A DNA stretch of 42,748 bases, taken from the IMG/VR virus record IMGVR_UViG_3300013383_000009, positions 1 to 42,748 of that record; one strand, 5' to 3'. The notes below the pieces were generated by a model. That model had not been told where the DNA came from. It made no database searches and worked only from the letters and a program-made list of their open reading frames with translations. Position numbers and translations under genes: made by a program. The DNA is from a virus. Below are positions 2,644 to 30,521 of this stretch, in pieces (positions within the stretch are counted from its first letter, which is position 1; each line of letters starts with the position of its first letter).

Positions 2644-3237
2644 ATGGAGAAATCGTTGCAGGACACTTGTCGGGACGCAAAACTGGAACAGCACATCACG
2701 GCGCAGGAGATAGCAGACCAATCCGGTGTGCCTTTGTCCAGCGTCAACAACTTTTTCGCATCCACATCTAAAGCACCGGGCGTGTATGCGGCTGGCCCCA
2801 TCTGCAAGGTGCTGGGGGTGTCTATGGACCGTTACTTTGGCATTGTAGAGGTTGTTTTGGCGCAAGACCAAATCAAGCAGCTCCAGCAAGTCCATGACGA
2901 GGATGTGCGCCTTGCACGGATAGAGGGCGCATACGATGAGCTGTCCAAATCAGCAGAGGAGCAGAAGAAAAAAGCAAGGCGGCAGCGCACGATGCTGTAT
3001 ATCGCATCGCTGCTGTCCGCTATTCTGCTGGGTATAGTTACATGGTATGTGGCGCTTGATTACCGTGTGCAGGACGAAGGCCTGATCCGATCTAAGACAA
3101 CCGGAACGATTGCATGGATTGTCATTGCGCTTTTGGCGGTGGGTATCGGCGTACTTACATCCGTGCTATTGTCCACTCTTGCGGCGGACAAAAAATCCAA
3201 ACAAGGCGAGGAAGCAGAAAATGAGCAACTGCATTAA
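2644..3237 (+). CDS. Membrane-anchored HTH protein (N-terminal XRE-like HTH, coiled coil, two C-terminal TM helices)
   Basis: HTH ITAQEIADQSGVPLSSVNNFF. Hydrophobic segments MLYIASLLSAILLGIVTWYVAL and IAWIVIALLAVGIGVLTSVLLSTL. Overlaps the integrase start by 17 nt. Confidence 0.75.
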   Translation: MEKSLQDTCRDAKLEQHITAQEIADQSGVPLSSVNNFFASTSKAPGVYAAGPICKVLGVSMDRYFGIVEVVLAQDQIKQLQQVHDEDVRLARIEGAYDELSKSAEEQKKKARRQRTMLYIASLLSAILLGIVTWYVALDYRVQDEGLIRSKTTGTIAWIVIALLAVGIGVLTSVLLSTLAADKKSKQGEEAENEQLH

Positions 3238-4315
3238 ATGCGGAACAGCTCTTGTCCCGGGCGCTGTATATTGCCATCTCTGTGGCAAAAAACAGGTAAC
3301 AGAGCGGCGCAAGGCATTGAAGCGGGCAAACGGCACCGGAACTGTATACAAACTGGCTGGGCGTAGAAAATCGCCTTGGGTGGCCGCAAAAAACAAAGTG
3401 ATTATCGGGCATTATGAGCGCAAAACGGACGCTCTGGACGCTTTGGAGCGGTTGAACGGCAAGAGTTTAACGGAGCGGTATAATATGACCTTTGCGGAAG
3501 TCTTTGATGCTTGGAAAGAGGAGCATTACAAAGAGATCGGCAAGCAGGGGATAGAATCATATAACAACGCCTACCGCATATTTACGCCGTTGCACGGGAA
3601 AAAGTTTCGTGATCTCCGCACCGCAGACTTTCAGGCCGTACTTGACCCACACATGACCAAGAGCCATTCCACCGTGAACAAGTACAAGCAGCTCATAACG
3701 CAGATGTCGAACTGGGCAATCCGGGAGGAAATCTGCACAACAAATTTTGCAAAGTTTGTCCGGCTGCCGGAGAATGTCAAAAAAGAAAAGGACATCTTCA
3801 CGGAGGAAGATATCCGAAAATTGGAATCCGACAACAGCGATGCGGCGAAAATTGTCTTGATGCTGCTGGCAACGGGTATGCGTATTGGAGAGCTGTTTTT
3901 TTTGCCGCTGGCAGACTATCACGGCGATTATGTGATCGGCGGTGAAAAGACCGAAGCCGGACGAAACCGAATTATCCCCGTTCGCCAGGAGGGGAAAAAA
4001 TACTTTGCCTACTTTGCGAAGCGAGCAACGGGGGAGCTGCTGTTATCCGGCTACGATGGGCAAAAAGTCCCAGCAAACTTCCGCAGGCGTGATTTTTACC
4101 CACTCCTTGACCGGCTGGGCATAGAGCGCAAGACCCCACACGCCACACGCCACACATACGCATCCCGGGCGGTAAAAGAGGGATTGCCCCCGGAAATGCT
4201 GCAAAAAATACTCGGACACGCCGATTATTCCACCACCGCAAACATATATACACACATCGACGCGCAGACACTTGTGGATGCTGTTACTAACACGTTACTA
4301 ACAAATAAGAAATAA
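3221..4315 (+). CDS. int: Tyrosine integrase with N-terminal zinc-ribbon
   Basis: ATG at 3221 after GAGGAAG. N-terminal CIKCG...CHLCG. C-terminal HATRHTYAS...LGHADYSTTANIYTH gives the R..HxxR..Y catalytic signature. Confidence 0.92.
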   Translation: MSNCIKCGTALVPGAVYCHLCGKKQVTERRKALKRANGTGTVYKLAGRRKSPWVAAKNKVIIGHYERKTDALDALERLNGKSLTERYNMTFAEVFDAWKEEHYKEIGKQGIESYNNAYRIFTPLHGKKFRDLRTADFQAVLDPHMTKSHSTVNKYKQLITQMSNWAIREEICTTNFAKFVRLPENVKKEKDIFTEEDIRKLESDNSDAAKIVLMLLATGMRIGELFFLPLADYHGDYVIGGEKTEAGRNRIIPVRQEGKKYFAYFAKRATGELLLSGYDGQKVPANFRRRDFYPLLDRLGIERKTPHATRHTYASRAVKEGLPPEMLQKILGHADYSTTANIYTHIDAQTLVDAVTNTLLTNKK

Positions 4316-7144: not shown

Positions 7145-7801
7145 TTACCCCTCCCGGATATACCCGTCAAAGCCAGCGGCCTTGAGCTTGGCCAGCATCT
7201 TCTCGGCGTTGGCGCGGCTGGCGAATGCACCCACCTGGACGCGATAGAGCTTGTCGGCTGCGGGCTTGGGCTGCTCCGGGGCCTTGAAGGTCACGCCGAA
7301 GTAGTCGCAGATGCCCCGGGCGATGGCTTCGCCGATGTCGGCGGTGTGCTCCACGATCCACTTGGCCGTGGCGGCGTTGTCGTGGAACTCGCACTCGATA
7401 TACGCCGTGGGGGCACTGGGCACCCGCACCTCGTACAGGGAGGCATCCACCCGGATATTCTCGCTGGTGCCGGGGGTGATGGGGGCTAGCCGGGCAAAGA
7501 TGGCCTTGCAGGCCTTCATGCCCTGGCCGCTGCTGTTAAAGCAGAACATGCGGGTGCCGGTGACCTGGCCGTTAAAGGCGTTGGTGTGGATGGGCACATG
7601 GAGCTCTGCGCCAAAGGCGTTGGACTCCTTGCACTTATCCTGCATGGAGGGCATATGCCCCACCTTCACGGTCACGCCGCTGCGCTCCAGGGCGATGCGG
7701 CAGGCGTCGGCGATTTTGCCGCACTGGACAGCCTCGGTGGTGCCTCCGTAGGCATAGCGGTTGTCGGTCTGATTGCTGGGGGACAGATACACTTTAGCCA
7801 T
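7145..7801 (-). CDS. Endolysin: N-acetylmuramoyl-L-alanine amidase (Amidase_3-like) with C-terminal SPOR domain
   Basis: KVYLSPSNQ...HVPIHTNA...YIECEFHDN is an amidase-type pattern. C-terminal LYRVQVGAFASRANAEKMLAKLKAAGFDGYI is SPOR-like. ATG at 7801 is 9 nt after AGGAGG; the alternative ATG at 7807 is only 3 nt after it. Confidence 0.9.
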   Translation of the reverse strand: MAKVYLSPSNQTDNRYAYGGTTEAVQCGKIADACRIALERSGVTVKVGHMPSMQDKCKESNAFGAELHVPIHTNAFNGQVTGTRMFCFNSSGQGMKACKAIFARLAPITPGTSENIRVDASLYEVRVPSAPTAYIECEFHDNAATAKWIVEHTADIGEAIARGICDYFGVTFKAPEQPKPAADKLYRVQVGAFASRANAEKMLAKLKAAGFDGYIREG

Positions 7802-8009
7802 TTTCATTTTCCTCCTTATGATAGGTTGCCGTGGAGATGCACAGCACCGCGCCCAGGAACGTGTCCACGGCGGTGATGGTGGTGACGATCTCCTGGGAGT
7901 ACGGCCAGGCCCACACGGCGGACAGGGCCGCATACAGCGTGGCGATGGCCGGCAGGACGATGATGACCACCCACTTGAGAATGTCATACAGCTTGTCGGG
8001 AATCTTCAT
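7794..8009 (-). CDS. Holin (phi LC3 / Phage_holin_1-like)
   Basis: ATG after AAAGGAG. Translation begins MKIPDKLYDILKWVVIIVLPAIATLYAALSAVWAWPYSQEIVTTITAVDTFLGAVL. Lies immediately upstream of the amidase. Confidence 0.85.
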   Translation of the reverse strand: MKIPDKLYDILKWVVIIVLPAIATLYAALSAVWAWPYSQEIVTTITAVDTFLGAVLCISTATYHKEENENG

Positions 8010-8049: not shown

Positions 8050-8301
8050 TTAATGCTTGTTTTCCAGGTCCTCGATGCGGTGGTTGGCGACCTTAATCTG
8101 CTCCTCCAGCACCGGGACGCGCCGGGCAAAATTGTTGTGTTCCCGGACCTCCCGGGTCAGCTCCTCCAGCTTGGTGTCCGTGACGGCCTGCTGCTTGTCC
8201 AGCTTGGCCTCCACGTCCTTGGTGGTTTGTCGGCTGGTGATAAGTACCCCCAGCAGCGACAGGCCGCCGGTGATCAGCGCCACGATGATTGCTTCTGTCA
8301 T
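8050..8301 (-). CDS. Membrane-anchored coiled-coil protein (XhlA-like lysis accessory)
   Basis: ATG at 8301, 7 nt after GGAGGG. N-terminal TM AIIVALITGGLSLLGVLI followed by a coiled coil. Sits upstream of the holin. Confidence 0.7.
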   Translation of the reverse strand: MTEAIIVALITGGLSLLGVLITSRQTTKDVEAKLDKQQAVTDTKLEELTREVREHNNFARRVPVLEEQIKVANHRIEDLENKH

Positions 8302-8315
8302 TTGTTTGCCCTCCA

Positions 8316-10151
8316 TTAAGCGATCTCTTCGTTCTTGGTTACCACGACACCATCGCCGGTGCCCTGGGCGGAAAAAATGATATAGCCAATATTGGCATAG
8401 TTGGCATAGCTGGCATCCAGCACGATCTTGTAGTATTTGTCCCCCAGCTTTGTCACAGTCGCCATACCGGACAGCGCCGTGTACTGCTTGCAGAAATGAC
8501 ACCCGCCAGTCATGCCGGAAAAAGCACCCAGCCGCTCATGGCCGCTGCCCTCCAGCGTTGCCCCCTTGACATAGATGACATCGGACGGCTGCACCGCGAT
8601 AGCGCCGGTACACCAGCAGGCCTCATCCGTGCCATAGTAGGGCTTGGCGGAGGATGCATAAGCGCCGTTGCGATAGCCCTTGCCGTCCCACACGCCGCTC
8701 TTGGTGTTGGGGTCTACGGCTGCCGGCAGCACGTTGGTATAGGACGGCACATACACCGCTGCCGTGATGATGATCTCAATATTGCCACTAACATCCGGGA
8801 TGCTGATAACACCGTCTGCGTAGTACAGCGCCGTCACATCCGTGCCGCCCATCTTGATCTGCACCGCTGCGCCGTCCATCACATATCCGCTGTTTGCAGT
8901 GATGGTCGCATAGTAAGCGTCGCCCTCGGTTACTGTAGTTGCCGCATTGCTGCTGGTGCAGCCGGTAAGGGTGTTGGTTACGGTGTACTCCTGCGGCGGC
9001 ACGATGACTTCCCCAGCGTCTCCGGAGATCATGGCTGCACGGAACGCTTTGATTTCCGCCGCAGTAATGCCGCTGGCGACCGCCCATGCCACAACTCGCT
9101 CATTATCATTCTCGCCGGTGTAGGTGTCCCGGAAATACTTAATGAGCGGATACCACCCGTTGCCGTTGGTGACGTTGTAGTTGCTGTTTCTAAAGCGCCT
9201 GCCGTCTACCTCATCGGAAAAGGCCGTCAGCTCGTAGTCCTTGTCCTTGTCGCTCTGAGACACGCCCAACAGCGACAGCAGCAGATACGCGATGGTTCCG
9301 GTGCGGTCTGCGCCGCTCATGCAGTGGAAGTAGCAGGGCTTGTTCGCCGCCACGCAGGCCATCACCTTTTTCAGCACCGCCACCGTCCGGGCGGAGGCCG
9401 CGCTGGTGCTGACGGCGTTGGCGTAGTAGTCAAGCGACTGATGAAAATACTCCACATCTGCGCCAAGCGGCGAGGTGGTAATGCTACCAGTCTCACTGTT
9501 GTTGCGGAGGTCAATGTCTGCCGCAATTCCGAGCCAATCCACAATGGTTGCCTTGTCGGCATTGGTGATGCTGCCAAAGTGACCGCCTCTAAATATTTTC
9601 CCGTACTTCACACGGCCACCGGTACAGGCCCAGCCGCCCAGGTCCCGGACATTCCACACGCTGGGCGTATAGATCATACGCACACCACCCTCGGGCACGA
9701 TCTTGTAGGTCTTGCCGCCGAACGCGAATGTACCGGCCTTCAGCGGCTCCAGGTTGTATAGGACCCCTTCGCCGGAAAGCGTCTCGCTCCTGGTTTTGCC
9801 GCCCTGTGCAATGGCGAGTGCGGTGTTGGCCGGAACTTTGACCTTCAGCCCGTCCGGCTCCTCCTTGCTGTAGGCCGTTGTCGCCGAATAATACGGGGTG
9901 ACCTTCGTGACGGAGTAATCGCCTGCGTTTTCGGTGTAATCCACATCGGCCAGGAATCCCGCCGCTGATGGATTCATCTGCCGGTACTGGGTAGTGTTCT
10001 CCAGGGCCTCATCCACGATGGGACTGTCGTAAATGGCCGTAATGGCCGCCGCCATATCCCCGATTTTGTAGGTATCCGTCCCGCCGGTCTTGGCCCGGAT
10101 GGCGCTGGCAATAGCCTGCACGGAGGATTCTTCATACAGCCTTTTTGCCAT
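8316..10151 (-). CDS. Tail fibre / receptor-binding protein with an internal PTP-type (Y_phosphatase3-like) domain
   Basis: 611 aa, last gene of the tail module. WNVRDLGG...FRGG...DIDLR... and FHCMSGADRTG (HCX5R[S/T]; Cys codon at 9321-9323). The C-terminal ~250 aa are beta-rich. Confidence 0.85.
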   Translation of the reverse strand: MAKRLYEESSVQAIASAIRAKTGGTDTYKIGDMAAAITAIYDSPIVDEALENTTQYRQMNPSAAGFLADVDYTENAGDYSVTKVTPYYSATTAYSKEEPDGLKVKVPANTALAIAQGGKTRSETLSGEGVLYNLEPLKAGTFAFGGKTYKIVPEGGVRMIYTPSVWNVRDLGGWACTGGRVKYGKIFRGGHFGSITNADKATIVDWLGIAADIDLRNNSETGSITTSPLGADVEYFHQSLDYYANAVSTSAASARTVAVLKKVMACVAANKPCYFHCMSGADRTGTIAYLLLSLLGVSQSDKDKDYELTAFSDEVDGRRFRNSNYNVTNGNGWYPLIKYFRDTYTGENDNERVVAWAVASGITAAEIKAFRAAMISGDAGEVIVPPQEYTVTNTLTGCTSSNAATTVTEGDAYYATITANSGYVMDGAAVQIKMGGTDVTALYYADGVISIPDVSGNIEIIITAAVYVPSYTNVLPAAVDPNTKSGVWDGKGYRNGAYASSAKPYYGTDEACWCTGAIAVQPSDVIYVKGATLEGSGHERLGAFSGMTGGCHFCKQYTALSGMATVTKLGDKYYKIVLDASYANYANIGYIIFSAQGTGDGVVVTKNEEIA

Positions 10152-11637: not shown

Positions 11638-13902
11638 TCAGCTTGCGATCCATATCCCTGCAATGTAGATGCCGTACCCTGCGGGTATATCCTCCTTGGG
11701 CCGGATCTGTATGGTGCCGGTCGTACTCAGTCGCACGTCCATATTCTTTAGGCTATATACACTCAAGGCGTAGGTCGATGTTGGGATGTGATCGCCGATG
11801 CTGGCCACGTCATAGGTCGTTCCCGCCGGCATCGCCGCGTTCGTCTCGCCATATACGCGCAGGATGCCAAGGCCAAGCGCAGAAATATGCCGCGCCGTGC
11901 CGCTGAAATTCTTCAGATACGACCCGGACGCGCCAATTGTAATGTTGGCTGGGGTAAAGCCCAGCAACGTTAGTTTCCCAGACACGTCATCATAGCTGGC
12001 TATTGATTTATCGTTTTTTGCGTCATACACACCCAGCGCCGTAGTAGATGATCCTACGCCGCCGTAAATGCGCACATTATGCACATTTGCAGCCACGTTT
12101 GTGGTTTTAAAATGTATGTTAGAGCCGTTGTCCGTAGTCGCATTGCCACCCATAAAAAGGTGTTGATTTGCGTGCAGTTCTCCATCGATATAGGTATTGA
12201 GCCCAATTTGCAAGGCTCTACTTTTGTCACAAAGACGCCCGATTCCAACGGATAGCATGGATTTTGCCCAGTGGAGCAACACAAACGATGCGGAAATGTC
12301 CCGCATGCTGGAATTGCTGGTGCTGAAAGCATCCGTTGCCACCACGCGTACCGTGTAGCGCTTATTGGTATCTGCGGGGAAAATGGTGGTGATGTTTTTG
12401 GGGGCATACTTATCGGCGGTCGGTATCGTCGGCGTTACCTCCGTCCACAACCCCGTGCCGCCATATTCGCGGTACTGCACCTTGTAAGCCGCCGTATTAT
12501 TATCTGATAGCGCAGTGATGGCGGCGGTAAAGGTGACCTTGCCGTACTCTCCCGTGCGGCTCGCTGTGCCGTCTTGCTTGCAGCGGGTGGCGGAGATGGA
12601 TGAGATGGTGGGGACACTGTACGGCGCTACATCATAGCTCGCCGACCATGTACCCGTGCGCCCTCGGCTGTCCGTTACGATACAGGTGACGTATACCTTG
12701 CCATTGTAAGGCAATATCCCCGTCGTGCCGGTCTGCGCGTCGGCAGAATACAGTGTGCTGGAGCCTGCCGACCAGCCCACTTTAATCCTGTATGATTTGA
12801 TGGCGCTGCCTTGTATACCTGTCCCGGTGATTTTAACTTCGATCTTGCTGCGCAGCTGCACAAAGTACCCGCCATAGTTGGTTTTGACCTTTGTGGGGTC
12901 GCTCACGGCCACTGTCAGCGATGGCACCTCGCTTGCCGGGATCGCCAGCGTTACCGTACACTCCGACCGGCCCACATAGGCGGTGCCGTTGTAAGTCTCG
13001 CAGATGATCGTTGCCGCCAGCTTTGTGCTGTTGGGCGCGTTGGTAGCCAGACTAACAGGCGGCGTCCAAGAGTAAGTTCCCGCTGTGCCATCATATTCCG
13101 TGAGCCGCACGGCGCTTTTGCTGCCGACCTTGTAATATAGCTTTTTTGTGAGGCCCACATTGTTTTGGGTGGTCTTGATAGCAAGGGCTGTTCCGAGGGT
13201 GCCTGTGCTGGGTGCCGACACCGATGCGGCCGGAACCGACAGCGTAACTGTGCATTCCGACCGGCCTACATAGGTATCGCCGTTGTAGGTATTAGTAATG
13301 ATCTTTACCGTCAGCGTTTTGCTGTTGGGTGCCTTACTGGCCAGGCTAACAGGCGGTGTCCAGGAATAAGACGTACCGGCGCTCGCCGTTATCGTTACCG
13401 CTTCGTTGTTCCCGATTTTGTAATATAGCTTATCAATAAAGCTTGTGCTCTTGCGGTCAATCTTGATAGCAAGAGCTGTGCCGAGAGTACCAGTGCCGGG
13501 TGCTGATACGGTAGACGCCCGGGGAATGGTGGGCAGGGTGAAGCTCTTGGCTGCGGCGGTGTAGTCGCCGTTGCCGAACAGCCATCCGGTAAACGCCGCC
13601 ACGGTGAAGCTTTTGGTGCCGTCTGGGTTGTGGCTCAACTCCAGCGTGCCCGAAGCAAAGGTGCGATCCTTGTAGTCCGTAATGTTGGAGTAGGTGCCGC
13701 CGTCGTACACCTTTACCCCGGCGATGGTCACCGCCGACATTTTGATGGCCTTGTCATAATACTGCTCTCCCGGGGTCAGGCCGCAGGACCAGGCGATGGT
13801 GGTCTTGTTGCCGGAGATGCTTTGGCTGCCGGAGATGGCCCATTTCACCCAAAAGTATGAGCCGTATTTTGTGTTTGTTGTAATTGCGCCGCTGGTGGCC
13901 AT
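11638..13902 (-). CDS. Minor structural / tail-tip protein (DUF859-like N-terminus) with an internal ~97-aa tandem duplication
   Basis: ATG 6 nt after AAGGAGG. N-terminal SGAITTNTKYGSYFWVKWAISGSQSISGNKTTIAW. Repeats VSAPGTGTLGTALAIK...GRSECTVTL occur twice. Confidence 0.85.
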   Translation of the reverse strand: MATSGAITTNTKYGSYFWVKWAISGSQSISGNKTTIAWSCGLTPGEQYYDKAIKMSAVTIAGVKVYDGGTYSNITDYKDRTFASGTLELSHNPDGTKSFTVAAFTGWLFGNGDYTAAAKSFTLPTIPRASTVSAPGTGTLGTALAIKIDRKSTSFIDKLYYKIGNNEAVTITASAGTSYSWTPPVSLASKAPNSKTLTVKIITNTYNGDTYVGRSECTVTLSVPAASVSAPSTGTLGTALAIKTTQNNVGLTKKLYYKVGSKSAVRLTEYDGTAGTYSWTPPVSLATNAPNSTKLAATIICETYNGTAYVGRSECTVTLAIPASEVPSLTVAVSDPTKVKTNYGGYFVQLRSKIEVKITGTGIQGSAIKSYRIKVGWSAGSSTLYSADAQTGTTGILPYNGKVYVTCIVTDSRGRTGTWSASYDVAPYSVPTISSISATRCKQDGTASRTGEYGKVTFTAAITALSDNNTAAYKVQYREYGGTGLWTEVTPTIPTADKYAPKNITTIFPADTNKRYTVRVVATDAFSTSNSSMRDISASFVLLHWAKSMLSVGIGRLCDKSRALQIGLNTYIDGELHANQHLFMGGNATTDNGSNIHFKTTNVAANVHNVRIYGGVGSSTTALGVYDAKNDKSIASYDDVSGKLTLLGFTPANITIGASGSYLKNFSGTARHISALGLGILRVYGETNAAMPAGTTYDVASIGDHIPTSTYALSVYSLKNMDVRLSTTGTIQIRPKEDIPAGYGIYIAGIWIAS

Positions 13903-13914
13903 AATCACCCTCCT

Positions 13915-15588
13915 TTAACTGATGATTACATCTTTGTCATCGTCCGCCTGGATAATCACGTTGCCGATCATAATGGCGGACACGGTAAGACGTTTGGCTA
14001 TCACGCCTTCCGAGGTGATTTCTAACTCCGCTATGTTGTCCCGAAGAAACTGGAGTGTGTTATTGGCAAGGAGTAGGCTTATCGGGCTGTCAGATTTGCC
14101 AATAACAATGCCGTCATCGCCGACTGTAAACGATGTTGTGACCTTTTCCAGCTCTGTCCCAAAGCCGCTTATCTCAGCGCGAATGCCATCCGCACTCTGC
14201 GAAATCATGCTTTCGGCGGTAGCGCTGCTGATTTTAGATTCCAGCTTCCCGTTGATAAAGGTCAGCGCATCGGAAAGTCCATCAACAGCATCCTGCGAAA
14301 CAGATCCAATAACCAGTGATGTGCCGGCAATCCTACCATCATCCGTAAGGGCGATGTTGCTGATGGTCTTACCGCCATCGGCGGAAAAGCCCAGGCCACC
14401 GTCGGACATGATCCACATCTTGGTATCATCTTCCACGGTGGGCGTATTGCGGAGCTGCCAGCCGGTGGGGTAGCCGTCCTCATCATAGTTGATCTCGAAA
14501 TATCCGCCCTTGGCCCCGATGATTTTTTCCGTGGCGCTCTTAAACGCTTCCCGTACTGCGTCGTACTGCTGCTGTACCTTTTTTTGTGTAGGAGATTCCA
14601 CGGAGTACTCCGCGTCCTCGGTGCCATAGCAGGTGATGTCAGCGGACATGCCGCCCTTAATTGTCATGCGCTGCTCCATGACGTAGACCGTCATAGCCTT
14701 GCCGTCTCGCCCGGTCACGGTCACGCTGTCCCCGGCCTCCACGGCGGGGTTTCCGCGCCACTTGAGCTTACAGGGCATAAGGGACTTGCCGGAAATTTGA
14801 GCAAGCACCACTGCGGCCTGCTCGGCGGTCATATAGGGGTTGGTGGATGTGATGCCCAGCCCTGTGCCGACGCTGATGGGGTTTTCCTTCGTACCGGTCA
14901 GTAGGCTGTTGATGGTAAATGCGCTGTCGGCGGTCAGCTCCAGGCCGTCCATATACTGGACGTCCCATCCAAGTGTCAAGCCACTGTCGGCGTACCAGCA
15001 AAACACAAGGTTGCCTGTGGCGTCAAACTTTGCGTTGCATCCAATCAGCCCGGCCAGCCATCCTAACTGCTGCCGCAGAGAACCGGAATAGGGTGTGGCG
15101 ATTTGTATGTCCGGCATAGTCACGCTGGGCGCGGTCACACGAGCCTGGGTGCAAATGTCTACAAGCATCTGCGTCGGCGTGGCCGGGAATGTGATAGTGG
15201 GCATATAGTCCTCTGTCAGCCCAGCCATACGGTCGTAGCCTGTGACAGTTACCCACAGCTTCCCACTATCCTCTACGCCATCTGAAGGGATGTAGTATTT
15301 ACCCTTTTGCACATACTGGGCTTTACCGCCCACCATGATACCGGCAGAGGGGATAAAATACGCACCGTTCAGCGGCAGATTGTCCTGCTTGTAGAATGTA
15401 ATCTTGCAGCTGGACGAAAACGCCGCGCCGATGGTCACGCCGTCCGAGGAGCCAAACTGCTCCGTTACAACAATCTCCTGTATCTCCGATGCTGGAAGGT
15501 CTGTCGTCCCGTTGAAATTTACCTTGCTGGTTATTTCACGCCCCGGCGCAGAACACGCGGCGTTAAATGCGTCTGTTACAGTATGCAT
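13915..15588 (-). CDS. Tail-associated (Tal-position) protein
   Basis: 557 aa, second ORF after the tape measure. The call rests on position and size. Confidence 0.8.
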   Translation of the reverse strand: MHTVTDAFNAACSAPGREITSKVNFNGTTDLPASEIQEIVVTEQFGSSDGVTIGAAFSSSCKITFYKQDNLPLNGAYFIPSAGIMVGGKAQYVQKGKYYIPSDGVEDSGKLWVTVTGYDRMAGLTEDYMPTITFPATPTQMLVDICTQARVTAPSVTMPDIQIATPYSGSLRQQLGWLAGLIGCNAKFDATGNLVFCWYADSGLTLGWDVQYMDGLELTADSAFTINSLLTGTKENPISVGTGLGITSTNPYMTAEQAAVVLAQISGKSLMPCKLKWRGNPAVEAGDSVTVTGRDGKAMTVYVMEQRMTIKGGMSADITCYGTEDAEYSVESPTQKKVQQQYDAVREAFKSATEKIIGAKGGYFEINYDEDGYPTGWQLRNTPTVEDDTKMWIMSDGGLGFSADGGKTISNIALTDDGRIAGTSLVIGSVSQDAVDGLSDALTFINGKLESKISSATAESMISQSADGIRAEISGFGTELEKVTTSFTVGDDGIVIGKSDSPISLLLANNTLQFLRDNIAELEITSEGVIAKRLTVSAIMIGNVIIQADDDKDVIIS

Positions 15589-15975: not shown

Positions 15976-18282
15976 TTACACCACCAGCGGGCTTGCGCCG
16001 GTGGCACGCACCACAGCGTTGTTTTCTTTCACAATAGTGTCAAATATTTTTTTGCCGTTCACGCTGTCCAGCACGATCGTGATATGATTTACTCCGCCGC
16101 CGTTTTTGACTTCCTCCCGGACGATCTGGCGGATCAGATCGGCGGGAGCCTCGATGTTCGTGCCGTGCTTTTGGTCGCCCAACACGGCCAGGAATTCCCG
16201 ATTTGCGGGGATGACAGCGCCCTGGGCCAGGCGGGGAATATGGACATTGCCCCAATTGACCCGGCCAATGTTCACGCCGGGGATCTTGTTCAAGATGCCC
16301 GTGATGCCATTTACCATATCGCTTACGCCGCCCAGCACCCAGTTAATGCCCCGTTCAATACCCGAGATCAAGCCGTTCATAATGGTTTTCCCAAGGTTCA
16401 GCCACCAGGCCGAAGTGAATACGGGGGCAATATAGGCGTTCCAGAATTCTTTGATTTTTTGCCAGACGTATTTAATCTTGTCTCGGATGAAATCCCAATT
16501 GGGTGCGATTGCCGCCGCCAAACTAACGCCACCGGCAAGCAACATTCCAATGCCCAGGGGTATTCCCACGCCCGAAAAAATAAGCATAAGCCCGAGGACA
16601 ACAAGAAAACCGCCGATCATAGCAAGAGTTTTGCCAAGAGGACCCCGAAGTGCCTGCGTAATACTGTCCCAATTGGGCGCAATTACGGAAAACGCAAACA
16701 TGGCGATTCCGGCAACGATCATGCCAATGCCCACAGCCATCATACCGGGCACCATTGCCAGCAAAAGGCCAAACACAACAATATACGGGGAAATTTGTCT
16801 GAATATTTTCGTGAGTGCTTCGGTCATATTTTGGCCAAGCAGCTCCCAGTTCGCCGCCACTTCCCCCACAGCAAACAGCGCAATACCGGCAATAATCAAG
16901 CCAATACCAAGTGCCTGCTGCCCGGGGACAAACAGCAGCACGGCACCAAACAGCGCAATGTAAGGGGAAATGTCGATTAACATATTTGCAAGGGCTCCCA
17001 CAAGGTTTGTGCTGAGCAGATCCCAGTTTTCCGCCACTTCCCCGACGGCGAACAGTGCAATACCGGCAATCAGCAGGCCAAGGCCCATAGGGATATTCCC
17101 GGTCATCATGAGCACCACGCCGAGAATAGCAATCATCGGGCCGATAGCAATCAGAATTTTTGAAAGACCCGTTTCTACAAGCGTCTTTGCTGCCTCTCCG
17201 CCGTCGGATGCATAAACACCGTATACTGTCAACGCGCCCGCAACCATCATCGCAATGCCTACCCCGACATGGCCGGAAAAAGCAAGGATGGCTCCAATTG
17301 CAAGCAGCGCAACGCCTGTCATTAGGGCCATTACGGCATTTACGCCGCTCCCAATATCGCTATCAAAGTTAACTGCATTCCCGCCGCTTTCGCTCCCGCC
17401 TCCTGCGTCGTCGCCGCTTATTGTGTTAAGCTCGTCAAACGGTGCCAAATACTTGCTTGCTTTTTTTGCCGCGCTCCCTACACCCTCGATGGCGTTTTGC
17501 TGATCGTTTAGGCTTTTTGCCGCCTTTTTCGAGGCGCTATAAGTTGAGCCAAAAAGCAAGGACAACAGACGAGACGCACCGGTCAGTGTATATGTGATGA
17601 TTTTTGCCAGGGCCGTAAAGGCGGGGATCGCAATATTGACAATCGGTTGCGCCAGTGTGCGCAGCTCGCCTTTTAGTCGAGCTACCGCATTCATAGCATC
17701 ATCATTTGTCTGTATGGCAGACCACATATACTGCTTAATTCTCCGCAGCGCGGCGGTAATAATTGTAAATATAAATACCCGCTTAGCAAGGCCCTTAATG
17801 CGCCCGACCAGTTTGTTGAAACTTTTTTCTGCTTTTTCAGCTGCAGGAGATAACGCCTTTGTTGCCGGGGCAAGTGCCTGGGCGGATTTTTGCGCCCCTG
17901 CAACCTGTTTTTGTAAATCTGCGGCTTTTTCTTTTGCCGCATTTAATCTGCGTTCGGTTTCTCTAATTTTTTCATTTGCTTTATCCACTTTATCTGCAGC
18001 AGCGTCAAATTCTTTTTGTAAAGCAGATACATTTTTTTCTTGTTCGAAAATAGAATCGGATGTAAAAAACTCTTGTCCGCTTTTCATGTATTCCAATTTT
18101 GCTTTTGCTGCATCTAATTGTGCGCCGAGCTGCGCAGATTGACTTACAAGAGCGGTTTTTCCTGTGTTTTGTTCCTTCAGCTTTTCGGATATTCTTTCTA
18201 TTTTCTGCGTAATGGAGTTAAGCTCTTTCTGCGCCTGCTTGTCATCAACGTTCACTTCCACCACGACAGCCCCGTCCGCCAT
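15976..18282 (-). CDS. Tape measure protein
   Basis: 768 aa. N-terminal coiled coil and a central block of repeated hydrophobic segments (IAGIALFAVGEVA.NW.LL...). Conserved position after the chaperones. Confidence 0.92.
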   Translation of the reverse strand: MADGAVVVEVNVDDKQAQKELNSITQKIERISEKLKEQNTGKTALVSQSAQLGAQLDAAKAKLEYMKSGQEFFTSDSIFEQEKNVSALQKEFDAAADKVDKANEKIRETERRLNAAKEKAADLQKQVAGAQKSAQALAPATKALSPAAEKAEKSFNKLVGRIKGLAKRVFIFTIITAALRRIKQYMWSAIQTNDDAMNAVARLKGELRTLAQPIVNIAIPAFTALAKIITYTLTGASRLLSLLFGSTYSASKKAAKSLNDQQNAIEGVGSAAKKASKYLAPFDELNTISGDDAGGGSESGGNAVNFDSDIGSGVNAVMALMTGVALLAIGAILAFSGHVGVGIAMMVAGALTVYGVYASDGGEAAKTLVETGLSKILIAIGPMIAILGVVLMMTGNIPMGLGLLIAGIALFAVGEVAENWDLLSTNLVGALANMLIDISPYIALFGAVLLFVPGQQALGIGLIIAGIALFAVGEVAANWELLGQNMTEALTKIFRQISPYIVVFGLLLAMVPGMMAVGIGMIVAGIAMFAFSVIAPNWDSITQALRGPLGKTLAMIGGFLVVLGLMLIFSGVGIPLGIGMLLAGGVSLAAAIAPNWDFIRDKIKYVWQKIKEFWNAYIAPVFTSAWWLNLGKTIMNGLISGIERGINWVLGGVSDMVNGITGILNKIPGVNIGRVNWGNVHIPRLAQGAVIPANREFLAVLGDQKHGTNIEAPADLIRQIVREEVKNGGGVNHITIVLDSVNGKKIFDTIVKENNAVVRATGASPLVV

Positions 18283-21616: not shown

Positions 21617-22828
21617 TCAAGAAACGGTAACGGTAGCAGTTCCGGTCTTGGTGCCGTCCTGCTTGGACTTGGCCGTGACGGTGATACTGGTCTTAGTCTC
21701 AGCGGAGGCGATAGTCAGCAAGCCGTCTTCGCTGATCTTAGACTTTGCGCCATCCTGGCTCCACTCGACCTCGCCGTTGATGATGCCCTCGCCGGTAACG
21801 ACAGCAGTAAACGCCTTGCTGTCGCCCTTTGCCACGGTGGCGGTGGCAGGAGACACGGTTACAGAGGACACGGTGCCCGCCTTCCCATACACAGAGAAGG
21901 GGAACGGGTTGGCAATTTCGGCGTTGTAAGCGTTGATGGGGTTTGCAATCTCCCAGCCAAGGCGCATAACGGCACGCAGCGCGACCATATCGTTTTGCAT
22001 GAGGTTGTAGGTAATGGCCTTGGTGCTGGGGTCCTGAATAACGCCCTCGGAGAAAATCTTAAAGGTCATATCCTGCCGAATGGCGTAGACAAGCTGGCTC
22101 CAGTCACCGACGATCATCTGCGCCTGGGAAGGATCGAACGCGCCGTTCATGGGGAAGTACATATCCATGCCGTCCAGGCCGTAGCGGGTAGACCCCTGCA
22201 TATCGGACTTGAAGATAGGCTGGCCGGTGGTGTCTTTCAGACCACGGAGCTTGCCGCGCATTTGGATGGCGGACATAACGCCGTTGGGGTTAAAGCCGTC
22301 CAGCTCGACCTTGGAGATCAGGCCGTTCTCGCCCATGATGTCGCTGAAAATGTCGGAGCTGATGGGCACACCGTTGCCGGCAGCGACAGCAGCAGGAACA
22401 ACGCCAGTGCGCCAAGTGCTCGGCTTGTTCGTGCCGAACAGGATAGCCGCGTCGATGACCTTGCCGAAAGCCTCGGTCAAACGGGGCTTGACCTCGCCCC
22501 AAATGTCATAGTCCGCATCGTCCAAAGCGGCTTCAGGGATGGGGACGATAACAGCGATCTCCTCGGCGTACAGCTTCTTCTTGTCCCACGCCATCTTGGT
22601 GGTCTGCTTGAATGCGTCGCCGGCGCCGCTGTCGGTAGCCTCGCCGTTCACGAAGTACGCGGAGGGCAGAGCATCCAGCACATTGATGGTTTGGGTCTTA
22701 CTGGACATGTTGGCCAGTCTGCGGCCCATACGAAGAACTGCGGATTCGGCGATAGCGCCCTGCATGATTTCACGGGATACGGGTTCCGGGATAAGACCGG
22801 AAAGTGCGGATCGATCAATAGTTGCCAT
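21617..22828 (-). CDS. Major capsid protein (HK97 fold) with C-terminal Ig-like (Big_2-type) domain
   Basis: 403 aa. The C-terminal ~85 aa (VTVSPATATVAKGDSKAFTAVVTGEG...TATVTVS) follow an Ig-like pattern. Confidence 0.92.
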   Translation of the reverse strand: MATIDRSALSGLIPEPVSREIMQGAIAESAVLRMGRRLANMSSKTQTINVLDALPSAYFVNGEATDSGAGDAFKQTTKMAWDKKKLYAEEIAVIVPIPEAALDDADYDIWGEVKPRLTEAFGKVIDAAILFGTNKPSTWRTGVVPAAVAAGNGVPISSDIFSDIMGENGLISKVELDGFNPNGVMSAIQMRGKLRGLKDTTGQPIFKSDMQGSTRYGLDGMDMYFPMNGAFDPSQAQMIVGDWSQLVYAIRQDMTFKIFSEGVIQDPSTKAITYNLMQNDMVALRAVMRLGWEIANPINAYNAEIANPFPFSVYGKAGTVSSVTVSPATATVAKGDSKAFTAVVTGEGIINGEVEWSQDGAKSKISEDGLLTIASAETKTSITVTAKSKQDGTKTGTATVTVS

Positions 22829-27010: not shown

Positions 27011-27456
27011 TATTTTTTCTTCCTTTTCTTTTTCATCCCTCTACCAAAGAACGAATCTACAGAGTTTTGCAAATTATTTTGCGCCCGCTTATATGTGGAA
27101 GATGTAATTTCCCGTTGTTCCCTGTTGGGGTTATAATGCTCTCTAAAATACCGTTTTGCGTAATCTTCCGCGCTTTCTTTTTTCTCTGTGTTATTTTTCT
27201 TTGGAGCTTTTTTCTCCGCAAGGCTTTTAATCATTTTTCCGGTTAGGTTGTCCACTTGTCTTTGTGTAATATCGTAATCCCGCATAAAAGCTTCTTTTCC
27301 GATTGCTTGTTTTACGCTCTCAACAAATGTTGGGGATTTGAGCAATTTTTCTGTCCCCAAGTATGCGTTAGACTTTGCGCTTTTCCAAAATTCGCTACGC
27401 TCTACAGCAGAACGCACCGCGCCAAGCCCGCCCCCGGCTCCACCTCTACCGCCCAT
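27010..27456 (-). CDS. Hypothetical basic protein with MGGRG N-terminus
   Basis: 148 aa. Begins MGGRGGAGGG. C-terminal GRGMKKKRKKK. The start overlaps the portal stop (TAATGGG). Confidence 0.75.
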   Translation of the reverse strand: MGGRGGAGGGLGAVRSAVERSEFWKSAKSNAYLGTEKLLKSPTFVESVKQAIGKEAFMRDYDITQRQVDNLTGKMIKSLAEKKAPKKNNTEKKESAEDYAKRYFREHYNPNREQREITSSTYKRAQNNLQNSVDSFFGRGMKKKRKKK

Positions 27457-28880
27457 TACTCTACCTCCTGTTGCTGTTCATCCGTCATGTCCTGCATCTT
27501 TGGCAGCGCCGCCTTTGCGGTGGCCTCGTCCTCGTTCATCCACCGCATACGGAACTCCCAATCGTTCATGATGCCCGCCTGCAAGAGCTGCATATCGCGG
27601 GCAAAGTCGGTCTGCTTGTCCTCAATGATGCTGTCATCAAAGTCGATGGATATTTCAACGTCCTCATTTAGCCCCGCGTTCATGGCCGTGTTGCCCAACC
27701 GAAGCAGAATGCGGCACAGCTCCTTCAATGCCTGCTCCAAGATGATCTCGTGTTTTTTGATGGTGCGGAACATAGTGGAGTTCTCGCTGATGACCTGTGT
27801 GGCAGTCGCTACGCTGCCGCCGTCGAAACGGTAATAGGTCTCGCCGAAGCCGCACTTACTGGACAGTACATTCAGTTGGTCTTGAAGTCCTACATTCAGC
27901 TGCTCAGTTCTGAGCGTCGGGGAAATTGTCTCTACGACGTTTCCTTGCTGCGTATCCTCTGGAAGCAGATAGAAACGCCGGTCGTTGTCGTCAAGCGTCG
28001 GTTCGTCGTCTTCCCACCTTGTGGCGGGCATTTTGACCATCATCATCATGGGGCCGTTCTCGAACTCATTGACGTAGCAGTCATATGCACAGTCAACGCC
28101 TCGCAGAACGTCGATTGCATTTGCATACACAGGGATACCAACCGGAAGCAGGTAGTCAAGATTGTTTGCGATGTTCGGTCTGTCGATGACGAACTGCCTC
28201 TTGTCGCTTCCCGTATGTACCACAGGGGGGATCCGCTCAAAGCCCGGAACATTGGTGAGCAGCGCGTCGGCAAGCGTCTCGTTTTCGTATCTGTAAATAC
28301 TATTCTCGATGACATAAAGACCGTTTTTGTCTTTCCGGTGAATCTGCAAATACAGATAATTCTTTCCGGCTCGTGTGACTACGCTGTCGAACGCGCATTC
28401 TGTGATAAATCCATTCTGCCAAGCCAGCGGAAAGATGTGCTCAATCGTCACATAGTCCAGCTCTACGCCGGAAACATCCCCCGGCACGATCTCACCGCTT
28501 TCGTTGACGGCCTGCCCAACCACACGCGGAATGTACGCCACAGTTCCGAGCGCTGACTTCATTTCCTGCATTTCATTTGCCTTGACCGTGAAGTTGTTCG
28601 CCGTCAGAACTTTGTCAATAAACTCCTGCTCCTTCTGGCCTTCAAGCGTGATCTGAACCTTCTCATTCATCAAGAGGTTTGCCCAGTCCTCACAAACCTT
28701 TTTCGCCATACCGAGGCTTGCACGGTTGCACTTTGTCCACTTATGCCCGTTATATCGCCGGTATTGATGAAAACCCTTGACTTTGCCGACGTACCACGAC
28801 TTCCAAAGGAACACGTATGTATAGAATTCCTCTGGGATCGTCGTATACCCGAGTTCCTTTAATTTATCGATAACCGTCAT
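27456..28880 (-). CDS. Portal protein (SPP1 Gp6-like)
   Basis: 474 aa directly after TerL with an ATGA overlap. The N-terminal pattern ...FYTYVFLWKSWYVGKVKGFHQY... resembles SPP1-type portals. Confidence 0.9.
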   Translation of the reverse strand: MTVIDKLKELGYTTIPEEFYTYVFLWKSWYVGKVKGFHQYRRYNGHKWTKCNRASLGMAKKVCEDWANLLMNEKVQITLEGQKEQEFIDKVLTANNFTVKANEMQEMKSALGTVAYIPRVVGQAVNESGEIVPGDVSGVELDYVTIEHIFPLAWQNGFITECAFDSVVTRAGKNYLYLQIHRKDKNGLYVIENSIYRYENETLADALLTNVPGFERIPPVVHTGSDKRQFVIDRPNIANNLDYLLPVGIPVYANAIDVLRGVDCAYDCYVNEFENGPMMMMVKMPATRWEDDEPTLDDNDRRFYLLPEDTQQGNVVETISPTLRTEQLNVGLQDQLNVLSSKCGFGETYYRFDGGSVATATQVISENSTMFRTIKKHEIILEQALKELCRILLRLGNTAMNAGLNEDVEISIDFDDSIIEDKQTDFARDMQLLQAGIMNDWEFRMRWMNEDEATAKAALPKMQDMTDEQQQEVE

Positions 28881-30115
28881 GCAATAACTCCCATTCTGCG
28901 GCTGACAGGCTCTAACGCATATCTCGTCGCGTCAATCAGGTGGTTGTTCGCGTCAGGGTAGCCGCTAATAATGTCGCCGTCTTTGCTTCTTTCGTATTCG
29001 TACCCCACAAATTCATCATAAGCATGTGGGGTTCTCTTCCTGTCTATTACGATTGTGCGCCGCTGCAGAAATTTCATACCATATTCCACGGACCCGGGGC
29101 CCTTTACCGCCTCAAGTGCCGGAAGTCCCATCGCGCGGAAGTCTGCCACGCTCTTAGGCTCTGCACTATCGCAAATAGTTCGCACGTTTTTATATCCTCG
29201 CTGCTTGATTATTGTCGCGCTTTGCTCATTGGATAGTTTGTTTTGGTAAATTTCATCCAGCAAGTAAATGGTTTCGCGCGCCCGGTCGTAGTGCAGCCGG
29301 ATAAAAGCAAACGGATCGGGAAACCACCCAAAGTCAACGCCCTGGTAAATCTTATCGAATCTTTTAAATTCGTCATCCGTGATTTCCCGCAGTTCCAGCT
29401 TGTCGAACACATTGCCGCCCGTACCCACAGGAATGCCTAAATACTCATGCTGGTACGCTCTCTCGTCCGTGGCCTTGAGATGTTCCGCTTCCGCTAAAAA
29501 CTGCTCACCCAGCCACTCTGGCGGGGCTTGCAAGTATGTTGACTTGTGGCACAGCCTGTCTGTGCGTTCTTCTAGGCTGTCCTTGTTCGCCCAGTTATCG
29601 CGGCTTATCGGCGGGTTGTAGCTTTCAAAGTTCCAATACTTCGAGCCACCGCGCATGGTCGATTGCAAAATCGTTCGTATCTCGGCACGACCGGCAAACT
29701 GGTCTTTTTCTTCAAAGTGTGTCACGGCAATGTAGCCAAACGGCACCTTGATAGACTTGATCTTCATGGGATCGTCAGCACCCCGAAACATGATTTTCTG
29801 CCCGGTAGGCTTGTAGATTAGCTCCATCGGGGAAACCTTTGCTTCCCAATACGCCGCCATACCCAACTCACCGATTGCCCAGATATACTGTGCGTACACG
29901 CTATCGCGGATGGTGTTTGCCACCTTTCGCAGCACGAGCGCGTGTGTCCCCGGATTGTTTATCAGCAGCAGGGGGACAAGTACAGACACAGTGGAGGACT
30001 TCAGTGAGCCGCGCCCGCCACTAAAATCGTAGTGCGTATGCCTGTGGTAAAACACATCGTGAGCCACATCGTAAAAAGCCGAGCCGATTTTTTCTGACAA
30101 GAGAATATCAGACAT
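28877..30115 (-). CDS. terL: Terminase large subunit (PBSX / Terminase_3-like)
   Basis: ATG at 30115. Walker-A-like GGRGSLKSS near the N-terminus, followed by a C-terminal nuclease-type region. Confidence 0.92.
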   Translation of the reverse strand: MSDILLSEKIGSAFYDVAHDVFYHRHTHYDFSGGRGSLKSSTVSVLVPLLLINNPGTHALVLRKVANTIRDSVYAQYIWAIGELGMAAYWEAKVSPMELIYKPTGQKIMFRGADDPMKIKSIKVPFGYIAVTHFEEKDQFAGRAEIRTILQSTMRGGSKYWNFESYNPPISRDNWANKDSLEERTDRLCHKSTYLQAPPEWLGEQFLAEAEHLKATDERAYQHEYLGIPVGTGGNVFDKLELREITDDEFKRFDKIYQGVDFGWFPDPFAFIRLHYDRARETIYLLDEIYQNKLSNEQSATIIKQRGYKNVRTICDSAEPKSVADFRAMGLPALEAVKGPGSVEYGMKFLQRRTIVIDRKRTPHAYDEFVGYEYERSKDGDIISGYPDANNHLIDATRYALEPVSRRMGVIA

Positions 30116-30521
30116 CAATAACCACCTTGACGGAATCCGTGCTTATTTTTGTCTCGCTCACTTCACGCCAACCGAAATTGCATCCAAGCGAGAATTTCGC
30201 GCCGTTCGCACCATCTTTGTCGTAGAGCCGAGATTCGGCGTATTCTTCGCATCTGGACTTTGCGCGCGTAACCGTGTCCGCAAACTCCGGTCTCCCCTGA
30301 TAATCAATCAGCGCCTGCCGCCCTGTGAACCCAAGCGACAACGCCAGCCCCGTTACCGTCGGCGGCTTTGCGTTGATGATGATCGGCACGCCGTATTTAT
30401 CCCGTACAGCGCAGCCGTCATCACCGATAAAGGGTTTTCCTTCGCACTCTTTGAAATAAGCGTCAATGGCGTCTTGCATCGCCTTTACGCTTTTCCATTT
30501 TCTTGGCGCTCCGCCAGCCAT
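30108..30521 (-). CDS. terS: Terminase small subunit
   Basis: ATG (MAGGAPRKWKSVKAMQDAIDAYF...) after AAGGAAG. PPTVTGLALSLGF is an HTH typical of TerS. The track's N-terminal extension is unsupported. Confidence 0.8.
   Translation of the reverse strand: MAGGAPRKWKSVKAMQDAIDAYFKECEGKPFIGDDGCAVRDKYGVPIIINAKPPTVTGLALSLGFTGRQALIDYQGRPEFADTVTRAKSRCEEYAESRLYDKDGANGAKFSLGCNFGWREVSETKISTDSVKVVIDV

Follow-up and report, generated by a model that had tools for sequence, protein, structure and literature searches.

A cysteine phosphatase domain in a presumed tail-tip protein of a temperate gut siphovirus

The virus record IMGVR_UViG_3300013383_000009 of IMG/VR, analysed here over its whole length of 42,748 nucleotides (the window), is the genome of a temperate siphovirus, a gut prophage, and at the end of its tail module it carries a gene for a protein of 611 aa in which a protein tyrosine phosphatase (PTP)-type cysteine phosphatase domain is combined with beta-rich domains. 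From the genomic context and the structural model, this product is presumed to be a modular tail-tip protein of five parts: the adaptor N1, the beta domain N2, the PTP domain, the immunoglobulin (Ig)-like domain C1 and the beta-sandwich C2. That the PTP domain has a phosphatase fold with an intact active site is hardly open to doubt, and that the protein is a component of the virion or of its fibres appears quite probable. The complete proposal, namely that we are dealing with a phosphoesterase at the tip of a virion side fibre which acts on a phosphorylated polymer of the host envelope, is in our judgement evenly poised.

A Y_phosphatase3 Domain with an Intact Active Site

The phosphatase gene and the motifs by which its domain can be recognized are as follows:

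8316..10151, minus strand: phosphatase gene, 611 aa, ATG start, GGAGG ribosome-binding site
9633..9656, minus strand: WNVRDLGG (aa 166-173), the N-terminal signature of the Y_phosphatase3 family
9582-9593, minus strand: FRGG (aa 187-190)
9504-9518, minus strand: DIDLR (aa 212-216)
9297..9329, minus strand: FHCMSGADRTG (aa 275-285), the P-loop, with CX5R spanning C277 to R283

An earlier note on the window, made from its letters alone, had drawn attention to these four landmarks, and all of them were found in the translated gene at the places claimed. The P-loop contains the pattern HCX5R(S/T) in the form HCMSGADRT (aa 276-284), in which C277 is the predicted catalytic nucleophile and R283 the predicted phosphate binder, with D282 nearby. 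Two further elements complete the picture: DYELT (aa 305-309), which represents the DY-x-x-(S/T) motif after the P-loop helix, and the subfamily motif GGW-x-C-x-GG, which directly follows WNVRDLGG and includes W174 and C176. The segment described earlier, 9117-9665, equals aa 163-345; its presence is borne out, but its length of about 180 aa is too short, since helices run to about aa 385 and the conserved unit extends over about aa 52-385. Similarly, the gene had been called the last and largest fibre gene: it is the last of the tail module, but it is not the largest, as a neighbouring DUF859 tail protein has 756 aa.

The Pfam scan matched PF13350 (Y_phosphatase3) to aa 163-312 with a score of 104.7 bits (gathering cut-off 22.2; E 1e-29), and the same family is matched by all 70 aligned relatives. 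Sequence matches in PDB comprise PtpB of Mycobacterium tuberculosis (1ywf, E 5e-8) and a PTP of Clostridioides difficile (8dhi, E 1e-4), which a profile made from the 70 relatives matches with E 1e-11 and E 9e-21, respectively. An AlphaFold2 model of the whole protein, built on the alignment of these 70 relatives, has a mean predicted local distance difference test (pLDDT) score of 91.8, and its best Foldseek matches in PDB are again 8dhi/8dhj and 1ywf/2oz5 (E ~3e-8, probability 1.00), followed by Siw14, TpbA, DUSPs, PTPMT1, laforin and poxvirus VH1-type phosphatases. The NxRDxGG, (F/Y)R(G/S) and DY-x-x-(S/T) motifs of the phage domain align with their counterparts in 8dhi and PtpB. Hence, the searches with hidden Markov models (HMMs) and with structure both give a cysteine-phosphatase fold, as the earlier note had expected, and a chance occurrence of CX5R is ruled out by the HMM score, the fold and the conservation described below. 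The further grouping with the PTP-like phytases did not hold. We take PF14566 to be the family of these phytases, separate from PF13350; at E <= 0.01 the Pfam scan of the protein returned only PF13350, the one family above its cut-off, plus a sub-threshold match to PF22785, and no phytase family, which is also missing from the nine families matched by the 70 relatives. Membership in the PTP-like phytases is excluded by this lack of a match to the phytase family model.

Conservation and Selection

In a search of 1.84 billion cluster representatives, where relatives aligned over the PTP domain have ~30-60% identity, 467 clusters at 50% identity matched with E < 1e-30, and most of the top 150 cluster representatives cover N2, the PTP domain and C1; homologues of the 611-aa protein number more than 2200. 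Among the aligned divergent PTP domains the predicted nucleophile C277 is present in 147/147 and R283 in 147/148, accompanied by D282 (147/148), G280 (148/148) and H276 (139/147), while N167, R169, D170, G172 and G173 are invariant. The residues of the subfamily motif are nearly as constant (W174 in 145 and C176 in 138 of 149 aligned domains), and position A281 of the P-loop is Ala in 119/148 relatives. At closer range, all catalytic and signature residues are invariant in 120 homologues of 84-100% identity, and CX5R is intact in 76/77 IMG/VR loci, the single exception being a truncated copy. The catalytic Cys and Arg are therefore conserved in the related proteins, the point on which the earlier note had made its phosphatase assignment depend. 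A dead pseudophosphatase is ruled out, because the nucleophile is never lost in the aligned domains.

Within the protein, constraint is strongest on the PTP domain. Its core has the lowest mean entropy in the 120 close homologues (0.17, vs 0.28-0.56 elsewhere), and in pairwise comparisons with 13 loci, at a synonymous divergence (dS) of ~1, the ratio of nonsynonymous to synonymous substitution (dN/dS) lies at 0.03-0.05 in the PTP domain, compared with 0.05-0.29 in the remaining domains. Whole-gene values of 0.07-0.09 indicate purifying selection. These comparisons leave out IMGVR_UViG_3300045988_177357 (L021/L054), the copy of which is truncated or frameshifted and gave absurd values: the gene is interrupted there after 265 aa, before the P-loop, with homologous sequence continuing downstream, and represents either a frameshifted pseudogene or an assembly error.

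Domain Organization

The five parts of the protein have the following limits:

10002..10151, minus strand: N1 adaptor, aa 1-50, helices 8-22 and 30-40, pLDDT 50-78
9672..10001, minus strand: N2 beta-rich domain, aa 51-160, strands 102-153 in the model
8997..9671, minus strand: PTP domain, aa 161-385, from Pfam and Foldseek, with four helices after the P-loop helix
8748..8996, minus strand: C1 Ig-like beta-sandwich repeat, aa 386-468, all-beta in both models
8319..8747, minus strand: C2 terminal beta-sandwich, aa 469-611, model pLDDT 95.5

N1 is presumed to be a docking module onto the fibre shaft. N2, which may bind substrate, stays with the PTP domain in remote relatives and in cellular ones, too; their matches start at about aa 46-56. 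Because N2 travels with the PTP domain, the functional enzyme unit would extend over about aa 52-385. No signal peptide and no transmembrane segment were found in the 611 aa.

The beta-rich C-terminal part mentioned by the earlier note resolves into two beta-sandwich domains, both in the model of the whole protein and in a separate model of the last 229 aa (aa 383-611, pLDDT 95.5) made for a fold search in PDB. C1 occurs in one to seven tandem copies in relatives (seven in protein P0263), and in some of these the C1-type repeats score as Big_2. C2, presumed to be the receptor-binding head, is the variable part of the protein since only 18/150 representative relatives have it. Four cysteines of C2, at aa 512, 514, 551 and 554 (CWC...CHFC), are kept in 116-120 of the 120 close homologues; a metal site or two disulfides may be built from them in this presumably extracellular head.

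Genomic Context and the Tail-Fibre Role

The gene is encoded within the tail morphogenesis module, downstream of the tape measure and baseplate genes, and the late genes follow one another in the order tape measure protein, tail proteins, collagen-like fibre, phosphatase gene, membrane protein, holin and amidase:

15976-18282, minus strand: tape measure protein
13915-15588, minus strand: tail protein(s)
11638..13908, minus strand: DUF859 tail protein, 756 aa
10151..11527, minus strand: collagen-like fibre shaft protein, 458 aa, ending in ...IADGTEVSY (Pfam Collagen, E 2e-28; many tail-fibre PHROGs)
8050..8316, minus strand: small membrane-anchored coiled-coil protein, first gene of the lysis cassette (phrog_1863, E 2.5e-15)
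~7794..8009, minus strand: Dp-1-type holin (Phage_holin_Dp1, E 1e-24; PHROG holin match)
~7145..7807, minus strand: Amidase_3 + SPOR endolysin (Amidase_3, E 3e-12; SPOR, E 3e-9; PHROG endolysin match)

The start codons of the holin and the endolysin were picked by eye from the list of open reading frames (ORFs). At its ATG, the phosphatase gene overlaps with the stop codon of the fibre shaft gene, and its own stop overlaps the likely start of the membrane protein, M63 of the listed ORF, at 8316.

The junction with the upstream fibre gene is a recurrent feature. The C-terminal motif [DN]GxE[VI]x[YFW] and a stop codon, followed by MAKKLYEE..., are present in 65/77 IMG/VR loci; in its fuller form, (I/V)ADG(T/S)EV(S/A/E)Y and the stop overlap or abut the ATG of MAKKLYEE(A/S)SVQAIANAIRxKNG.... 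Besides position 10151 of the window, the junction is seen in L001, L006-L018, L022-L025 and L041-L117. Upstream of it, protein length ranges between 165 and 694 aa, and no more than about half of the loci have a collagen-like protein there. Moreover, junction and protein together lie on unrelated backbones: the siphovirus of the window, phages with a P22-type portal (L025 and L037) and a chromosomal mini-element of ~15 kb. In L025 the order is collagen-like gene, PTP gene, a gene for a membrane protein of 104 aa, holin and CHAP lysin, the membrane protein directly after the phosphatase gene being again of the phrog_1863 type. The junction looks like a cassette boundary for the exchange of fibre tips, possibly a recombination site.

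Some longer relatives join the PTP domain to segments of tail proteins. On its N-terminal side, P0228 and P0261 have Phage_fiber_rpt as well as segments matching tail-fibre PHROGs, and P0221 has tail-protein PHROG segments in the same position. Foldseek matches of the flanking domains in BFVD include Dit, tail-tube-extension, tail and tail-fibre proteins, as well as a GDSL-lipase-like siphovirus protein. The N1 adaptor is a conserved N-terminal part, presumably an anchor, that precedes exchangeable distal modules: in L022, after a collagen-like gene, it carries BspA-type leucine-rich repeats (LRR_5, E 4e-79; adaptor 83% identical over 40 aa), in P0193 an N1-like adaptor carries a metallophosphoesterase (Metallophos) domain, and C2 is present in 18/150 proteins, as said above. 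The tail-fibre label of the earlier note thus finds support, as far as context can give it, in the gene order, the shaft junction and the fusions of relatives to fibre repeats.

Two of these contexts have peculiarities of their own. The N1 adaptor is a separate ORF of 83 aa in L023:10001-10777 and L024:4818-5570, followed in L023 by a stop and then an ORF of 171 aa in the same frame (163 aa for the counterpart in L024); the pair of collagen-like and adaptor genes adjoins portal and terminase genes there, not the end of the tail module. The phage-like element of ~15 kb (L001-L004 and L032-L035, e.g., L001:1363-16194), which encodes a phosphatase protein of 87% identity, has the gene order three small genes, terminase, P22-type portal, Prp protease, capsid, a 92-aa gene, a 666-aa gene, phosphatase protein, Amidase_2, holin and three more genes, without genes for integrase, replication or lysogeny. 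Contigs of several independent samples show it at one and the same chromosomal site, beside a gene for a surface protein with surface-layer homology (SLH) domains. It may be a domesticated locus or one for particles resembling gene transfer agents.

A Metallophosphoesterase in the Same Slot, and Cellular Relatives

Protein P0193 (L039:204-3782; 1192 aa) begins with an N1-like adaptor, MAQYLIQDTTITNIANAIREKTG... (E 4e-4), and ends in C1/C2 modules that are 38% identical to our query over 265 aa (E 2e-35). Its enzymatic slot contains a calcineurin-like metallophosphoesterase instead (PF00149, aa 75-304). The family of P0193 has about 145 members, nearly all annotated as PF00149 and many on contigs of ~40 kb. 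The contig of P0193 measures only 4.1 kb and the phage context of this sister family is taken from P0283 (L040:9001-11559), which comes directly after a BppU_N baseplate gene, the stop and start codons of the two overlapping. In another locus, a protein with fibre repeats and a PTP domain lies two genes from a Metallophos + Big_2 protein (L030:12014-14359). Because two unrelated phosphoesterase folds interchange on the same adaptor and head, the common property of the slot would be phosphate-ester chemistry at the cell surface. Judged from these sequences, the swap of folds argues independently for an action on phosphate-containing surface material.

Other members of the metallophosphoesterase family carry collagen or CW_binding_2 domains. 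Just upstream of the BppU_N and Metallophos genes of L040, an ORF of 6295 residues runs off the end of the locus (L040:1-7805); it has no Pfam match, and its product would be a giant tail or tape-measure-like protein.

The unit of N2 and PTP domain has cellular relatives, too. Bacteroidota-like relatives with lipoprotein-type signal peptides combine either Metallophos or fn3 with two PTP domains; because of these signal peptides they would act outside the cytoplasm. One example is P0182 (L028:8001-11555), a putative lipoprotein with Metallophos and two PTP domains which is encoded among housekeeping genes. The Firmicutes-like P0127 (L036:5094-8066) has an N2-like start and four Y_phosphatase3 stretches, and its gene stands beside two polysaccharide deacetylase genes.

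Comparison with Known Enzymes and Fibres

PtpB (1ywf, 2oz5) and the C. difficile PTP (8dhi, 8dhj) share with the phage domain the PF13350 HMM, the NxRDxGG and HCxxGxDRTG motifs, the helix with DY-x-x-(S/T) and the fold. Identity amounts to only ~18-20%, and the phage domain has no counterpart to an insert of 30-50 residues that they possess. With respect to PtpB, moreover, it has Ala in place of the P-loop Lys, the extra GGW-x-C-x-GG motif and a different setting: PtpB is a free secreted enzyme, whereas the phage domain sits inside an adhesion-type protein of five parts. PtpB is of triple specificity, hydrolysing phosphotyrosine, phosphoserine/phosphothreonine and phosphoinositides (PMC13275282). 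A basic, less confidently modelled loop of the phage domain (aa 312-332) occupies the position of the PtpB lid, with the consensus R-x-R...RRR in relatives; it could contact an anionic polymer.

Among virion proteins, gp12 of phi29 is a trimeric beta-helix that cuts the backbone of its polymer. This tail appendage of a Bacillus phage degrades wall teichoic acid during adsorption (PMC9863714). The likeness would lie in the combination of a tail appendage, a Gram-positive host and enzymatic action on a phosphate-containing wall polymer; the difference is that a PTP fold would be expected to remove a terminal or substituent phosphate rather than to cut a phosphodiester backbone. Another parallel is provided by the deacetylase/esterase-type tail fibre gp63.1 of phage G7C. 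Comparable cases are the acetyl-esterase domain of Vi-specific Salmonella phages and the esterase-fold receptor-binding proteins of the 5093-group phages of Streptococcus thermophilus (PMC9863714). Such fibres modify the receptor rather than depolymerize it, and they are modular, a constant N-terminal anchor being joined to a distal part that can be exchanged; they use serine-hydrolase chemistry on O-acetyl groups, whereas here thiol-phosphatase chemistry would act on phosphate esters.

In eukaryotes, the intracellular proteins laforin and SEX4 join a dual-specificity phosphatase (DSP) of PTP fold to a carbohydrate-binding module and act on phosphomonoesters of polysaccharides. They resemble the phage protein in the union of a cysteine phosphatase with beta-sandwich binding modules, but laforin (4r30, 4rkk) belongs to the DSP family, not to Y_phosphatase3, and gives much weaker fold matches (E ~0.004-0.02). 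A further parallel is that of P0193, P0283 and their ~145 relatives, which have the N1-like adaptor, the same C1/C2 and phage-sized contigs, and differ in the binuclear-metal fold of their catalytic module.

Proposed Function and Alternative Explanations

As a fibre-tip phosphoesterase, the protein would be the distal tip subunit of a side fibre on a temperate siphovirus. The helices of N1 would dock onto the C-terminus of the collagen-like shaft protein, N2 and the PtpB-like phosphatase (aa 52-385) would form the enzymatic module, presumably capable of turnover, and the Ig-like spacer with the variable beta-sandwich head (aa 386-611) would contribute binding to the cell surface. Upon contact with the host, phosphate held as a monoester, or possibly an anhydride, would be removed from an envelope glycopolymer or a surface protein, with C277 attacking as nucleophile and R283 holding the phosphate. 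This would be a step of receptor modification, like that of tail-fibre esterases and deacetylases, rather than depolymerization of a backbone, and it might follow the action of a diesterase such as the Metallophos proteins. Since the habitat is anoxic, an exposed catalytic thiol would be tolerable. That the protein acts on a phosphorylated component of the envelope is, taken by itself, a claim to which we give slightly less than even confidence. The earlier note had suggested hydrolysis of phosphate-containing surface polymers, teichoic acids among them. The swap for Metallophos in P0193 favours a phosphate-ester target. Direct depolymerization of teichoic acid is less likely: teichoic acids are phosphodiester polymers, and cysteine phosphatases, the usual substrates of which are phosphomonoesters or phosphoanhydrides, normally do not cut phosphodiesters.

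Several observations weigh against this proposal. In Gram-positive walls, the phosphate polymers known best are phosphodiesters, which are poor substrates for a cysteine phosphatase. The phage domain lacks the insert by which, in PtpB and the C. difficile PTP, the DLR strand is set apart from the strand of the P-loop; we take this insert to carry the proposed general acid of PtpB, Asp82, and because it is missing no general acid can be aligned. Among the candidates in aligned relatives, D282 and D170 are invariant, D214 varies (D106/N33), and D241 (D34/N20/S13) is only D, N or S in distant relatives. By analogy with myotubularins, D282 in the P-loop can be considered for this role. The model of aa 383-611 has neither a significant match in PDB nor a carbohydrate-binding relative, only generic Ig-like and pilin-like matches at E >= 0.019. 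The PHROG scan of the 611-aa protein gave no match, nor did the NCBIfam scan, so that the genome position carries the argument for a tail protein, and presence in the virion is deduced from context rather than directly seen. Morons and lysis accessories, too, typically occupy that position directly before the lysis cassette, and Gram-positive endolysins likewise consist of an enzyme with binding domains C-terminal to it. The subfamily is not confined to phages, as the cellular P0182 and P0127 exist. Finally, no cultured phage among 50,697 deposited genomes (INPHARED, tblastn) carries the protein; the three weak partial matches come from two uncultured faecal 'Bacteriophage sp.' and a 1.7-kb record of a Listeria phage.

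How do other explanations fare with the same evidence? The difficulty with the general acid, together with a P-loop that has no Lys of the PtpB/PTEN type (A281 being Ala in most relatives), would suit a lectin-like module that binds a phospho-ligand with little or no turnover, its fold co-opted for affinity; the slot does hold purely binding domains in some proteins, such as LRR_5 in L022. Binding needs no nucleophilic Cys, however, and this residue is retained without exception along with the His, the P-loop Asp and the Arg, whereas it is the residue lost in known pseudophosphatases. Furthermore, the alternative occupant of the slot is a metallophosphoesterase of unrelated fold, which points to shared chemistry and not to a shared binding shape. 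We therefore consider a pure binding module unlikely. The position of the gene raises the question of a role in lysis, in which a non-virion accessory would leave through the holin lesion, modify wall polymer from the inside with its C-terminal domains bound to the wall, and help the amidase or the escape of the progeny. It lies directly upstream of the cassette of membrane protein, holin and amidase, with its stop overlapping the likely next start, and adjoins holin or lysin genes in L001, L025, L037 and L038 as well; the layout of enzyme and then binding domains, without signal peptide, would also be in order. On the other hand, the coupling to the upstream fibre gene is tighter, as the widespread junction shows, tail-fibre repeats and segments of tail proteins occur in fusion with relatives, the Metallophos sister P0283 follows a baseplate gene and not lysis genes, and the adaptor is found on an LRR protein without obvious role in lysis. 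A lysis accessory appears, on balance, quite improbable.

An even smaller share of our confidence goes to a moron, a factor of lysogenic conversion or an ejected effector, which would act on host phosphoproteins or lipids (for example, in capsule control by BY-kinases) or change the surface so as to exclude other phages; we regard this as very improbable. Morons often sit where the late operon ends, cellular relatives exist, and PtpB and similar enzymes, the closest characterized relatives, are secreted effectors with proteins and phosphoinositides as their targets. Yet the protein has no export signal, its Ig-like and beta-sandwich domains are typical of extracellular adhesion modules, and its gene is co-oriented and translationally coupled inside the late operon. 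Also, the PADLOC defence models gave no family at E <= 0.01, and the 87%-identical protein belongs to a mini-element without lysogeny genes.

Host and Other Features of the Genome

The host is probably among anaerobic gut Clostridia, in the Oscillospiraceae. This assignment is weak, because the scan of genome collections gave a single 3-kb contig of a metagenome-assembled genome (MAG), from an uncultured Anaerotruncus sp.; a second hint comes from the SLH-protein genes that flank the chromosomal element of ~15 kb. The remaining genes recognized in the window are:

3110-4315, plus strand: integrase
21617-22828, minus strand: major head protein
27456-28880, minus strand: portal
28877-30118, minus strand: terminase

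The DUF859 protein (11638-13908) contains an internal duplication, ...STVSAPGTGTLGTALAIK...SYSWTPPVSLA...ECTVTL... occurring twice, and Pfam and PHROG each match two stretches of it. A gene for tRNA-Ala (anticodon CGC; 31793-31883, minus strand) is unusually long, with 91 nt; as the Rfam model of 71 positions matched end to end across 90 nt, it would contain an insertion or intron-like segment.

Distribution and Significance

In IMG/VR, 232 stretches or more encode relatives of the protein. NCBI and UniProt have already annotated the family automatically: DAG72128.1, 'MAG TPA: tyrosine phosphatase family protein [Caudoviricetes sp.]', is 88% identical, and Foldseek against BFVD retrieved three full-length 'tyrosine phosphatase family proteins' of UniProt from gut phage MAGs labelled Myoviridae, Ackermannviridae and Siphoviridae. 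Known enzymatic fibres and spikes are glycanases, lyases, esterases and peptidoglycan hydrolases. The earlier note was aware of no characterized virion phosphatase of this type, and our literature search likewise found none, nor any paper that describes, for a tail protein of a phage, a domain of cysteine-phosphatase or metallophosphoesterase type. In Stenotrophomonas phage DLP3, the product named 'tyrosine phosphatase family protein' has 156 aa and lies in a region of DNA metabolism, and the mention of a phosphatase in PMC7291167 is the title of a reference only. The word 'phosphatase' is absent from a 2023 review of phage adsorption to Gram-positive hosts (PMC9863714). The new aspect suggested by our analysis is, therefore, an enzymatic modular tail fibre with a catalytic class undescribed on virions.

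In a wider and more tentative perspective, phages of gut Clostridia could possess a large and hitherto unrecognized class of virion-borne phosphoesterases in which two unrelated folds, the PtpB-like and the calcineurin-like one, are swapped in one tail-tip scaffold of adaptor, Ig-like domain and head. The removal or cleavage of phosphate esters of the wall glycopolymer would then be an obligatory step of receptor processing in adsorption, the thiol version being viable only in anoxic habitats. To our knowledge, the receptors of phages on the abundant and poorly studied gut Clostridia are essentially unknown, and the domain described here points to a phosphorylated envelope component as receptor or barrier for such phages. 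From the interchange of PTP and metallophosphoesterase, it would seem that a 'phosphoesterase slot' is a general feature of these tail-tip proteins. If true, the display of a cysteine phosphatase on the virion would add a new chemistry to phage-host recognition, and enzymes of this kind could serve as probes of phosphorylated cell-wall polymers.

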